Of a DNA stretch of 64,000 nucleotides, positions 1-58,152 are shown piece by piece. Below the pieces are notes generated by a model that saw only the letters and a program-made list of their open reading frames with translations, was not told where the DNA came from and did not search any database. The position numbers and the translations under genes are program-made. Source of the DNA: Chthonomonas sp. (GTDB lineage: Bacteria; Armatimonadota; Fimbriimonadia; Fimbriimonadales; Fimbriimonadaceae). The first letter of the stretch is position 1. Each line of letters begins with the position of its first letter. The stretch spans positions 1 through 64,000 of the forward strand of contig JAEURP010000007.1 in the NCBI GenBank assembly GCA_016788585.1. The letters are read 5' to 3'.

Positions 1-3
1 TGC

Positions 4-137
4 GGTCTTTGGTCTATGGTCTATGGTCTATGGTCTATGGTCTATGGTCTATGGTCTATGGTCTATGGTCTATGGTCTATGGTCTATGGTCTATGGTCTA
101 TGGTCTATGGTCTATGGTCTATGGTCTATGGTCTATT
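4..137. repeat. Heptanucleotide tandem repeat (GGTCTAT)x18 plus one degenerate unit; the array begins exactly at the stop codon of the adjacent minus-strand gene and may continue beyond the window edge
   Basis: Direct reading: perfect 7-nt units from 11 to 136; ORF-track entry 9..536 (MVYGLWS repeated) is just its translation. Confidence 0.95.
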
Positions 138-546
138 GATAGACTTCCTCGTCTGGATCGACTTCGTACGGGGCTTTGTGCTCGCGCATGTGCTTATGGG
201 CCAGAGTGTCGACGAGTCTTCGAGTCTGCCTTTGAATTTGATTTAGTTCTAGTAGTGCCGAGTCGTACTCACTTTGGTCTACCTCGTACAATCTGGGTGT
301 TATCTCCAGTAGGGTTTCCAATTCCGCGGCAGATCCAAGCGCAATGCGCAGGAAGCGAGCGAAGTCACTATCTGTTCCTCTCGCAGAGCCTTCAGCGATG
401 TTCTGCGGAATCGAAACGGCGGCTCGCCTCGCTTGCGATATCAGCCCGTACTTCTCACTTGATGGCAATTTCCCATAGAGCTTATGGATTCGGACAGACA
501 AGTCGCAACCATTCTTCCAAACTTGAAGGTCCTTGAAGTTGCCCAT
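133..546 (-). CDS. Four-helix-bundle protein (23S rRNA intervening-sequence protein family, TIGR02436-like)
   Basis: 137-aa ORF; motif KDLxVWK...Y..P..EKYGL.SQ.RRAA.SIP.NIAEG..R....DF..FL.IALGS..ELET is characteristic of this family; stop codon TAG lies in the first unit of the heptamer array. Confidence 0.6.
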   Translation of the reverse strand: MGNFKDLQVWKNGCDLSVRIHKLYGKLPSSEKYGLISQARRAAVSIPQNIAEGSARGTDSDFARFLRIALGSAAELETLLEITPRLYEVDQSEYDSALLELNQIQRQTRRLVDTLAHKHMREHKAPYEVDPDEEVYQ

Positions 547-590
547 TTGGGCAATATATCAGATTGCATTGGCTCGGCTGCATTCCTTCA

Positions 591-625
591 ACCATCGACC
601 ATAGGCCATCGACCATCGACGATTG
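591..625. repeat. Short heptamer tandem repeat (ACCATCG-like x5), 45-80 nt upstream of the four-helix-bundle gene start and upstream of glgP
   Basis: Direct reading: accatcg accatag gccatcg accatcg acgattg. Confidence 0.7.
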
Positions 626-22209: not shown

Positions 22210-22305
22210 AGGATTCCTCGCGCGGCGGCCCGACCAACGCTATCCTGCCCGCCAAGGGCGGACACCCAAACTCTAACTTACCTCTTTTTTGGTCAGCTCC
22301 AATGG

Positions 22306-35284: not shown

Positions 35285-35362
35285 CAGTATATCATGGTTT
35301 TTGGTTTTGGGGTTCAGGTCGTTAAACGCCAAATACTCAACCCAGAAACCAAAAGCAGACGC

Positions 35363-36139: not shown

Positions 36140-36329
36140 GGTGATTCAAAGTGAAAGCCACCCACGCTTTACAGCGGAGGTGGCTTGAGATTCTCACCAC
36201 TTCCACAGTGCCTACGCCGGTATGAGCCGGATCAGGTCCTAGGGTCCGCAGATTTCTCTCTGCATCTCAGCCGCCTTCGCGACACCCCTTGCGGATTGCT
36301 TTCAACACTAAGAGTACCTTGCAGAAAGG

Positions 36330-41269: not shown

Positions 41270-41274
41270 GATTC

Positions 41275-41385
41275 TGTTAGGATTTGTTAGGGTTTGTTTG
41301 GGTCGTTAGGTTTGTTCGGGTCACTTTGCAAAAGGAGTAGCTTCCAGTCCTAACCACCCGAACTAATCCGAACCAACCCTAACGG
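41275..41385. repeat. GT-rich repeat element (GTTAGG[G/A]TTTG-type units) with partial inverted copy (CCTAAC...CCCTAAC) in the frr-uppS intergenic region
   Basis: Direct reading: ctgttaggatttgttagggtttgtttgggtcgttaggtttgttcggg ... gtcctaaccacccgaactaatccgaaccaaccctaacgg. Confidence 0.6.
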
Positions 41386-41943: not shown

Positions 41944-41946
41944 GGT

Positions 41947-42031
41947 TTTTTTGTTTGGTTTGTTAGGATTTGCCAGGGTTCGTTCGGTTTGTCCGTTATT
42001 CCCCAATTCCTAATTCTAAACTCCTAATTCC
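41947..42031. repeat. Second copy of the GT-rich element (tttgttaggatttgccagggttcgttcggtttg) followed by CT-rich cctaattc repeats, in the pyrH-frr intergenic region
   Basis: Shares tgttaggatttg core with 41275-41385. Confidence 0.55.
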
Positions 42032-42757
42032 TCATTCTCCAGCAACTACCGTCCCAACTGGTTCGCCAAGAACAGCCTGCAGCATTGCGTCCTTCTGATT
42101 CAAGTCTAACACGACCAGTGGAAGCTCATGTTCCCGGCACATCGTAAAGGCGGTCATGTCCATCACCGCGAGTTGCTTGCTCATCACTTCGCCATAGCCG
42201 ACCTTCTCGTAACGCTTGGCATCGGCGTGCTTGCGAGGGTCTTTGTCATAGACGCCATCCACCTTGGTCGCTTTAATTAAGGCATCAGCGTGAATCTCTA
42301 GTGCGCGCAAAACGCCCGCTGTGTCGGTCGTAAAGTAGGGATTGCCGGTGCCGCTCGCGAATACAACGATGCGCCCCTTTTCGAGGTGGCGAATGGCGCG
42401 CCTCACGATGAACGGCTCGGCGACCTGGCTCACGGTTATCGCGCTTTGCACCCGCGCCGCAACGCCATATTTCTCAATGGCGTTTTGCAGGGCGAGGCCA
42501 TTGATGACCGTACCCATCATGCCCATCTGATCAGCCACGCTGCGGTCGAATCCGCCCTGCTGGCTAAAGGCATCGCCTCGAATAAAGTTGCCGCCACCGA
42601 CTACCACCGCGACCTGAACGCCCGCATTCGCAACCGCAACAATCTCACCGGCAATTCGGTTCAAGGTCGTGGCATCAAGCCCAAATCCGGCGTCTCCGGC
42701 GAGCATTTCGCCACTAATCTTCAGGAGTACGCGCTTGAATTTGGGGGTGCCGGACAT
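42032..42757 (-). CDS. pyrH: UMP kinase
   Basis: KRVLLKISGE...GGG..FRG and overall PyrH sequence; ATG at 42757 preferred. Confidence 0.9.
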   Translation of the reverse strand: MSGTPKFKRVLLKISGEMLAGDAGFGLDATTLNRIAGEIVAVANAGVQVAVVVGGGNFIRGDAFSQQGGFDRSVADQMGMMGTVINGLALQNAIEKYGVAARVQSAITVSQVAEPFIVRRAIRHLEKGRIVVFASGTGNPYFTTDTAGVLRALEIHADALIKATKVDGVYDKDPRKHADAKRYEKVGYGEVMSKQLAVMDMTAFTMCREHELPLVVLDLNQKDAMLQAVLGEPVGTVVAGE

Positions 42758-47670: not shown

Positions 47671-47747
47671 GGGTGTGGGGTCTGGGGTGTAGGGTTTGGG
47701 GTGTGGGGTGTGGGGTGTGGGGTGTGGGGTATGGGGTATGGGGTATG
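47671..47747. repeat. G-rich heptamer tandem repeat (GGGTGTG/GGGTATG-type x11) between folB and metH-like gene; G-quadruplex-capable on plus strand
   Basis: Direct reading of 11 consecutive 7-mers each starting GGG(G). Confidence 0.9.
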
Positions 47748-47773
47748 GCGAGCGCGACCCCCCAACCCCAAAC

Positions 47774-58016: not shown

Positions 58017-58043
58017 TTGGCAGTATACCGCCGGGAGTGCTAA
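58017..58043. promoter_or_regulatory. Degenerate CIRCE (HrcA operator) TTGGCAGTA-N9-GAGTGCTAA immediately upstream of groES
   Basis: Right half 9/9, left half 6/9 to TTAGCACTC-N9-GAGTGCTAA; only 4 nt from groES ATG. Confidence 0.5.
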
Positions 58044-58052
58044 TAAGGCTAG

Positions 58053-58152
58053 TTTTCGGTGTTCAGTTTTCAGTGTTCGGTTTCACAGATTTCATGTTTG
58101 CGGCTCGCGTCTCCCCTCATCTCCAAACACCGAACACCGAACACCGAACACC
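58053..58152. repeat. Inverted heptamer repeats: (TTCGGTG-like)x3 ... ~40 nt ... (CACCGAA)x4, in groES upstream / GNAT upstream region
   Basis: Direct reading: ttttcggtgttcagttttcagtgttcggtttc ... aaacaccgaacaccgaacaccgaacacc. Confidence 0.85.

Follow-up and report, generated by a model that had tools for sequence, protein, structure and literature searches.

The 64,000-nt stretch analysed here (the window; positions 1 to 64,000 of contig JAEURP010000007.1 of the Chthonomonas sp. assembly GCA_016788585.1) begins with a long array of the heptamer GGTCTAT, which abuts the stop codon of a gene for a small four-helix-bundle protein (133-546, minus strand). The favoured explanation of this (GGTCTAT)19 array, to which a probability of about 60% is assigned, is that it forms the 3' arm of a cassette of the intervening sequence (IVS) type located outside ribosomal RNA (rRNA), in which a PF05635 gene lies between inverted, slippage-prone heptamer arrays. 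There is little doubt about the structural part of this reading, namely that the array is one arm of an inverted-array cassette. The mechanistic part, pairing of the arms as an RNA stem and its processing by RNase III, is drawn from analogy and is given even odds. The architecture of a gene between inverted arrays recurs across bacterial phyla, and its regularity throughout the family and these phyla, i.e. a period of 7, a phased purine-G step, a common handedness and hypervariable, co-evolving arms, appears not to have been described before: a literature search found no paper on a general association of this kind and returned the Coxiella heptamers only.

The cassette at the start of the window

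The main array occupies 4-136, where Tandem Repeats Finder (TRF) reports a period of 7, 19.0 copies and 99% matches, and it reads (ATAGACC)n on the minus strand, which carries the gene. An exact run of 18 perfect GGTCTAT copies (11-136) is preceded by one degenerate copy, GGTCTTT (4-10), and by TGC at 1-3. An earlier inspection of the letters without database searches (the sequence-only reading) had placed a long perfect 7-mer array at the stop codon and let it run to the window edge; the 18 perfect copies and their contact with the stop stand, TAG being the reverse complement of 133-135 inside the repeat unit nearest the gene, but the array ends 3 nt short of the edge. Throughout the 64 kb, perfect triple repeats are restricted to period 7 (four runs), with zero instances at periods 5, 6, 8, 9 and 10, and the heptamer arrays are therefore not a product of chance.

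On the other side of the gene, the same inspection had noted five copies of ACCATCG at 591-625. This second array exists in degenerate form: TRF finds 4.3 copies with 82% matches at 591-620, and the corresponding 5' arm (591-625, minus strand) comprises 4-5 degenerate heptamers reading CGATGGT or CTATGGC on the gene strand. It is placed 44 nt before the ATG of the cassette gene, between this gene and the divergent glgP, which starts at 678. Reverse-complemented, the upstream unit ACCATCG equals a rotation of GGTCTAT except at one position, and the arms (16-132 and 591-623) are 85% complementary over 33 nt in any register. Since the two arrays are reverse-complementary, the gene is enclosed by inverted heptamer arrays, and the earlier view of them as independent direct repeats at regulatory positions had to be given up. 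In the minimum free energy (MFE) structure of the window cassette RNA (660 nt) the arms pair. The spacer between the 5' arm and the ATG (547-590, minus strand) holds TGATATATT (561-553), which by our own reading of the sequence resembles an extended -10 motif 6 nt before the ATG; a scan of 1-900 for promoters and terminators found nothing, including no consensus two-hexamer promoter.

The loop cargo encodes a protein of 137 aa, whose assignment to the rRNA-IVS family of four-helix-bundle proteins was borne out by matches to Pfam PF05635 (E 2.4e-33, 115 bits at a cut-off of 33.8) and NCBIfam TIGR02436 (E 1.1e-31, 109 bits at a cut-off of 24). All invariant columns of the motif Q..RRA..S...NI.EG are present (Q38, R41, A43, S45, N49, E52 and G53). 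XCC0516 (2gsc, E 7.8e-20) is the closest solved structure and 2rld matches at E 1.8e-6; solved PF05635 members are cited as pentamers of four-helix bundles, a statement that concerns these relatives and not the present protein. An identical protein derived from a metagenome-assembled genome is on record as 'four helix bundle protein [Chthonomonas sp.]', and 133-546 is the only sizeable open reading frame (ORF) with family support in the region. With ratios of non-synonymous to synonymous substitution (dN/dS) of 0.068 and 0.084 in two orthologous pairs from elsewhere, the gene is under purifying selection. Searches of the PADLOC and PHROG libraries and tblastn against phages gave zero matches, and the bAvd profile PF22296 does not match the protein.

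Judging from orthology, the cassette is inserted between glgP and a leuA-like gene. A fully assembled orthologous locus (L233) consists, in this order, of glgP(-), 5' arm, PF05635 gene(+), 3' arm and leuA-like gene(+). The distal array end in the window, AAAGACC-GCA, is similar to the end of the L233 array, which stops ~17 nt before the leuA-like ATG; the 3' array is probably complete within the window, and the left neighbour outside the stretch is by orthology almost certainly a leuA-like gene. An exact match to the distal array junction was absent from the metagenome contigs searched, and the left flank was deduced from the orthologue instead. In a relative with 83% identical GlgP (L231), the leuA-like gene and glgP are divergent and ~140 nt apart, the cassette is absent, and homology with the window ends near 636. 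Another relative (L227, GlgP 78% identical) carries a gene-less, repeat-built hairpin in the equivalent spacer. As these site comparisons indicate, the cassette is gained or lost on the timescale of species divergence. No signal of target-site duplications was detected, and neither a recombinase nor a reverse transcriptase adjoins the cassette, as judged from the called genes within 10 kb on the glgP side and from the leuA-like gene on the other side of the orthologue.

Six independent short-read contigs encoding an identical protein all terminate within the GGTCTAT array, and the repeat length which they retain equals the k-mer size of the assembler, i.e. 29 nt in Logan and 103 nt in a k127 contig. 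Hence, the figure of 19 copies depends on a single assembly, while the k127 contig, with at least 14.7 copies, independently supports at least ~15. These breaks at k-mer-size length, as well as the position of the array 3 nt from the window start, could be taken to mean that an assembler extended a short repeat at the contig end. Such an artefact has a negligible probability, given that seven independent assemblies hold the repeat at the same junction, that the k127 contig is far into the array and that a fully bridged orthologous cassette has a comparably long 3' arm of ~160 nt. Six metagenome samples of this locus agree fully in the 5' arm, and none of them bridges the 3' arm.

Recurrence and variability of the arrangement

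The association of gene and arrays was followed in 80 homologue-encoding loci from reference genomes of Bacteroidota, Patescibacteria, Acidobacteriota, Bacillota, Desulfobacterota and others, with a near zone within 300 nt of the gene (47 kb in total) being compared by TRF with the other 320 kb, the far flanks. For arrays whose period is 7 or a multiple of it, the counts are 99 near the gene and 55 in the far flanks, corresponding to a ~12-fold enrichment, and period 7 alone (64 versus 44) is enriched ~10-fold. Besides the 64 of period 7, the near zone holds arrays at the multiples 14 (24 arrays), 21 (6) and 28 (5), as well as 17 of period 8 and 7 of period 16. While the unit sequence varies from locus to locus, the two sides are reverse complements of each other. 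In 52 of 78 loci the flanks are more complementary than any of 234 control pairs drawn from these loci and matched for distance. Under a strict lag test, 23 loci qualify at period 7, compared with 6 at period 8 and a single one at every other period. Furthermore, the 3' arm begins no more than 10 nt from the stop codon in 28 of 60 loci, just as in the window. Arms reach up to 19 units in the window and more than 40 elsewhere.

Cassettes are mostly co-oriented within strings of genes: the upstream neighbour shares the orientation of the cassette gene in 71 loci versus 7, the downstream neighbour in 64 versus 13. Insertion sites include groES-groEL and, on a finished Anabaena plasmid, cas6-cas4, where a ~300-nt array of AGGTGAC/AGGGAAC heptamers lies opposite (CTGTCAC)x4.3; PF05635-type genes inside cas operons had been remarked on earlier (PMC3936711). 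PF05635 genes flanked by heptamer arrays are present on finished plasmids of both Anabaena and Calothrix. Among 20 homologous loci subjected to Rfam, none is situated in an rRNA gene.

Read outside-in, the arms are G-rich and C-poor, G exceeding C in 46 loci and falling below it in 9. A polarity relative to the gene, with a G-rich 5' arm, was rejected as the meaning of this bias, because a hairpin that is first G-rich and then C-rich reads alike on both strands; what the bias describes is the handedness of the inverted repeat. The inward-reading units share a phased step: 88% of arms have G at position 1 and 96% a purine at position 7, the five positions that separate the two being variable. 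Its information content amounts to 2.95 bits, compared with 2.07 +/- 0.06 for controls with permuted columns. Stop codons in all three frames are found in inward-reading arms at 26/60 versus 14/60, a modest difference that is confounded with the low C content. The GGTCTAT/ATAGACC unit elsewhere flanks quite different PF05635 proteins, and in the opposite arrangement, so that its variable part does not correspond to the protein it accompanies. Another kind of cargo within the hairpins was also considered and discarded, the inner ORFs being further PF05635 copies or a neighbouring methyltransferase domain rather than a second cargo family.

Arm length is subject to pronounced variation among samples that encode 100% identical proteins. 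Across 10 samples of protein P0049, lengths of 179-330 nt were recorded for the upstream arm and of 250-387 nt for the downstream arm; the 5' arm measures ~7 versus 13 units in the groES-groEL cassette (P0003) and 8 versus 2 units in the orthologue of the window cassette (P0002). Unit sequences diverge between species as well. At a common locus, two Geothrix species have mostly AGCTATC/GATAGCT and AGCTGTC/GACAGCT, respectively, and a Chthonomonas-like orthologue has GGCTGAT/ATCAGCC in place of the GGTCTAT-type/ATAGACC units of the window, retaining ATAGACC/ATCGACC units at the far end of its 3' arm. In both of these orthologous comparisons the two arms change unit together and keep their complementarity. 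The slipped-strand variation originally proposed for the arrays therefore exists in this repeat class, but not as classical contingency switching of the cassette gene: a main array located downstream of the stop codon cannot switch ORF 133-546 on or off by its length in the classical manner.

A proposed RNA stem model and its alternatives

The proposed mode of action is modelled on two known systems. In the 23S rRNA IVS of Coxiella burnetii, a 28-bp stem flanks an S23p ORF, upstream of which tandem GACAGAT heptamers occur in numbers that vary between strains, and RNase III cuts at the first repeat (PMC4990558). In Haemophilus influenzae, a transcribed (ATCTTTC)n array of hmw1A constitutes one arm of a hairpin that is cleaved by RNase III, and the number of repeats sets expression (PMC12721329). 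By analogy, one transcript running across both arms of the cassette would allow them to pair as a long stem with the gene in its loop, whereupon RNase III would cut the paired arms as in the Coxiella IVS and the Haemophilus hmw leader. The cassette RNA would thereby be freed from the flanking host RNA and tolerated in operons or rRNA without blocking them, so that a passenger gene devoid of a promoter could live in operons as it does in rRNA. Replication slippage, probably combined with template switches from one arm to the other, would make the arms grow or shrink and become homogeneous, and arm length could in turn modulate processing and expression of the cassette gene or of its downstream neighbour. 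The handedness, with the G-rich arm first, could serve to limit exposure of a C-rich, Rho-loading 5' arm before its partner is made. In line with such a stem, complete cassettes folded as RNA close the long-range stem in both the MFE and the centroid structure, with z = -6.0 (L233) and -4.9 (L207) and 0 of 20 shuffles being as stable. If the RNase III model is correct, the cassettes would be a widespread class of passengers that insulate themselves from the transcription units they ride in, and would cause neighbouring genes to be expressed differently from strain to strain.

Several observations weigh against the cassette reading and its RNA mechanism, some of them from the window itself. Its own stem is weak: the 4.3 units of the 5' arm each contain about one mismatch, and the fold of the whole cassette reaches z = -1.8, with a centroid that lacks the closing stem. 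Given that glgP is divergent, one RNA spanning both arms would have to start from a promoter within the 52 nt that separate the 5' arm from glgP, where the scan found none, while the extended -10-like motif lies inside the cassette, downstream of the 5' arm. Some members of the family depart from the arrangement, for instance a copy on a Nostoc PCC 7120 plasmid, whose heptamer arrays on the two sides are non-complementary. Moreover, mismatches within the arms show no preference for G.U over A.C on the sense strand (54 versus 72, not significant), and hence they do not prove pairing at the RNA rather than the DNA level. Selection by array instead of by gene, which gave more than 120 metagenome contigs with at least 4 copies of GGTCTAT, leads to a different picture: only 2 of the 75 well-flanked arrays have a PF05635 gene within 150 nt, most arrays are without an inverted partner within 1.2 kb, and both orientations occur. 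As a predictor of the gene, a (GGTCTAT)n array thus mostly fails, and heptamer arrays must exist for other reasons too. The arrays fall into three nested classes, solitary arrays, inverted pairs and inverted pairs with a gene, and only the last is explained by the cassette reading. Some metagenome contigs (L135, L181, L182, L201 and L120) have between four and six distinct (GGTCTAT)n arrays spread over only a few kb; in these organisms GGTCTAT is therefore a genome-wide dispersed repeat like TAACTGA in Beggiatoaceae.

Among the alternatives, a classical contingency locus, in which heptamer slippage tunes the four-helix-bundle gene or its neighbours through promoter geometry independently of any hairpin, is considered unlikely. 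It would account for copy numbers that are hypervariable between samples with identical proteins and for arrays that are intergenic and beside start codons; ATAGACC and ATCGACC can also be read as holding -35-like TAGACC and TCGACC, with -10-like CATAAT/TATAAT before the leuA-like ATG of the orthologue, and heptamer number tunes hmw1A expression in Haemophilus (PMC12721329). However, the hmw effect itself acts via an RNase III hairpin, and in the window the repeats lie after the stop codon and 44 nt before the ATG, neither in the ORF nor between -35 and -10. In addition, changes of copy number in the interior of an array leave the spacing at its ends unaltered, the 5' arm is the same in all six samples of the locus, and the complementarity of the arrays and their co-variation between species would be left unexplained. 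If no function were involved, slippage arrays would arise in weakly constrained spacers of repeat-prone genomes, with the gene being tolerated or inserting there and complementarity being maintained passively through quasi-palindrome template switching. The predominance of solitary (GGTCTAT)n arrays without a gene, the over-representation of heptamer simple sequence repeats (SSRs) without a known role in many prokaryotes (PMC4692102) and the one period-7 array per ~7 kb in the far flanks of the 80 loci speak for this view. It is nevertheless very improbable in light of the ~12-fold enrichment beside the gene, of inverted arrays that flank it on both sides in various phyla, of an ORF packed tightly between its arms and of the RNase III processing of such stems demonstrated in two organisms.

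A further alternative shifts the function of the inverted arrays to the DNA level, where they would delimit a mobile cassette in the manner of terminal inverted repeats, REPIN-like hairpins or attC-like folded sites, with the PF05635 protein acting on them, alone or with a host enzyme, for mobility or maintenance and with gene-less hairpins as non-autonomous or decayed forms. Presence and absence of the cassette at an orthologous site, the great diversity of its hosts and settings (operons, cas loci, plasmids and rRNA), gene-less hairpins of like build in the same genome and at the equivalent site of a relative, the phased purine-G step in inward-reading units and the 46 versus 9 handedness are all compatible with it. 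On the other hand, target-site duplications gave no signal, no recombinase or reverse transcriptase is adjacent, and PADLOC and PHROG matches are lacking. Arm sequences differ between sites of one genome, in contrast to repetitive extragenic palindromic (REP) sequences or terminal inverted repeats. The unit as a whole is unlikely to be recognised by its sequence, because a single unit is found beside unrelated PF05635 proteins and orthologues switch units. To our knowledge, no catalytic activity has been assigned to the PF05635 family, which likewise counts against an element of this kind. Taken together, it appears improbable.

Beyond the cassette reading itself, PF05635 proteins might be functionally tied to heptamer arrays in general, an idea that is put forward as a long shot. 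Rings of these proteins (pentamers in solved relatives) would recognise the purine-G step phased every 7 nt in single-stranded RNA or DNA and thereby control folding, RNase III processing, slippage or spread of repeat hairpins, much as the TRAP ring reads spaced GAG/UAG triplets. Cassettes would then be the autonomous members, whereas gene-less hairpins and solitary arrays (STRR, GGGAATC, TAACTGA) would be the non-autonomous ones, a relation loosely reminiscent of RAYTs and REPINs. If true, this tie would explain why prokaryotes have the excess of heptamer SSRs that has long been noted.

Related systems and other features of the window

Heptamers are the one class of long SSR known to be over-represented in prokaryotes, and the literature on bacterial heptamer SSRs in Xanthomonas, Nostoc, Beggiatoaceae and Bacteroidetes leaves them unexplained without mention of the PF05635 family (PMC4692102, PMC4679880), to which the present analysis ties them. 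The family is large, one search having matched more than 2,000 clusters, and no other Pfam family is as frequent in loci of diversity-generating retroelements (DGRs; PMC10053308); its sole member with a known role is the DGR accessory protein Avd. The window protein shares fold and family homology with Avd, but its gene lacks an adjacent reverse transcriptase and a template/variable repeat pair, its neighbours being glgP and the leuA-like gene.

The closest likeness is to the gene-carrying rRNA IVSs of Leptospira, Coxiella burnetii and the 16S/23S insertions of Candidate Phyla Radiation bacteria, which encode the same protein family in sense orientation within a loop. Complementary termini enclose the ORF in either case (33 nt at 85% in the window, strong stems in L233 and L207), and the Coxiella IVS additionally has tandem heptamers of strain-variable number in the 5' part of its stem. 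In contrast, the window cassette is located between protein-coding genes instead of in an rRNA gene, as others sit in ordinary operons (groES-groEL, cas6-cas4), and the arms of this type are long tandem arrays. Moreover, the Coxiella ORF is decaying and probably untranslated, whereas the cassette gene is maintained by selection. The 5' untranslated regions of Haemophilus hmw1A/hmw2A similarly combine a heptamer array of variable repeat number with a complementary arm in a long hairpin; they differ in having no gene in the loop, only one tandem arm and no link to PF05635, and in being leaders of surface adhesin genes.

Heptamer SSRs such as the cyanobacterial short tandemly repeated repetitive (STRR) sequences, GGGAATC in Xanthomonas, GGGGA(C/T)T in Nostoc and TAACTGA in Beggiatoaceae share the period of 7, the intergenic location, the variable length and occasional inverted pairs (PMC4692102, PMC4679880). 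In those genomes one unit dominates throughout, mostly as solitary direct repeats, whereas each site in the window has its own unit. The sequence-only reading had likened the arrays to cyanobacterial STRRs: period and location fit, and cyanobacterial PF05635 genes are indeed flanked by such arrays, but the key structure is an inverted pair enclosing a gene, and the host is a Chthonomonas-like member of Armatimonadota and not a cyanobacterium. Xanthomonas, with its GGGAATC heptamers, is also the source of the solved family member XCC0516. RAYTs are Y1 transposases, and the REPs with which they are associated share one sequence per genome. REPIN/RAYT systems resemble the cassettes in that a single gene is flanked by inverted short repeats and many gene-less hairpins populate intergenic regions; unlike them, the cassettes have units that change between sites and encode a small helical bundle, matching PF05635 only, without a known catalytic motif.

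Gene-less structures of comparable build are present at further sites of the window, and hairpin units differ between the six sites in the stretch. A G/T-rich arm is followed by an A/C-rich complementary arm at 35299-35354 (inverted repeat of 19 nt, 84%, 18-nt loop). Repeat-built hairpins lie between uppS and frr (41270-41385; GTTAGGG-type versus CCCTAAC-type units, TRF 41275-41322, inverted repeat 41286-41301 / 41368-41383) and between frr and pyrH (41945-42037; G/T-rich units followed by AATTCCT x4.7, TRF 42005-42037), the complementarity of the latter two arms being read by eye from the sequence. At 47671-47773, (GGGGTGT)x11 is followed by the short complementary arm CCCCCAACCCCAAAC (inverted repeat 47694-47708 / 47759-47773); TRF gives 11.1 copies of GGGTGTG at 47671-47748, and the RNA fold of the site is no better than that of shuffles. 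Upstream of groES, a hairpin at 58051-58152 opposes GGTGTTC-type units to (AACACCG)x4 across a 42-nt loop, with 29 nt at 83% complementarity; it is made of two inverted arrays, 58051-58083 and 58126-58152, and its RNA fold reaches z = -6.9 on the minus and -5.0 on the plus strand. The arrays reported earlier at 47671-47747 and 58053-58152 were both confirmed by TRF, although it had been missed that each is an inverted pair without a gene. Common GTTCGG/CCGAAC-like and GTTAGGG/CCCTAAC-like units are shared by gene-less hairpins of the lineage, as exemplified by the pyrH-frr-uppS spacers, the groES hairpin and the glgP-upstream spacer of GCA_031425375.1 (L227, 3836-3960), and such sharing hints at a lineage-specific hairpin family separate from the cassette arms. 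No Rfam family covers the hairpins, and no rRNA was found in the window.

Adjoining the groES hairpin, a CIRCE-like inverted repeat, TTGGCAGTA-N9-GAGTGCTAA, is situated at 58018-58044 on the minus strand upstream of groES, and the groES promoter must therefore lie within or beyond the hairpin. The groEL cassette was observed in two upstream contexts when L209 and L216 are compared with L207, L210 and L212, the PF05635 protein and the groEL N-terminus being identical: it is preceded either by groES or by a minus-strand rotamase gene with a CIRCE-like sequence. These contexts represent either a second groEL copy that carries the same cassette or a graph chimera through the repeat.

At the leuA-like gene, a -10-like CATAAT/TATAAT is present 8-9 nt before the start in both the occupied (L233) and the empty site (L231). 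In L233, the last unit of the 3' arm supplies a -35-like TAGACC at a spacing of ~18 nt from this motif, and the array may thus be part of the promoter of the neighbour. The junction of array and gene in the window (130-147) forms a perfect palindrome, GTCTAT-TG-ATAGAC, and the final codons of the gene, GTC TAT CAA TAG, hold one heptamer unit oriented opposite to the array.

The arrays systematically break short-read assemblies and give rise to spurious ORF calls. Plus-strand ORFs at 9-536 and 16-246, reading MVYGLWSMVYGLWS... (MVYGLWS repeats), are translations of the array, and similar calls of 73-124 aa occur in L217-L226. Many PF05635 homologues stand alone on contigs of only 500-1,400 bp, little longer than the gene, which is consistent with assembly breaks in both flanking arrays and probably reflects them.

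Apart from the repeats, Rfam identified a thiamine pyrophosphate (TPP) riboswitch at 36191-36299 on the minus strand (RF00059, 70.3 bits) and an nhaA-I RNA motif at 22221-22267, likewise on the minus strand (RF03057, 42.9 bits at a gathering score of 37).

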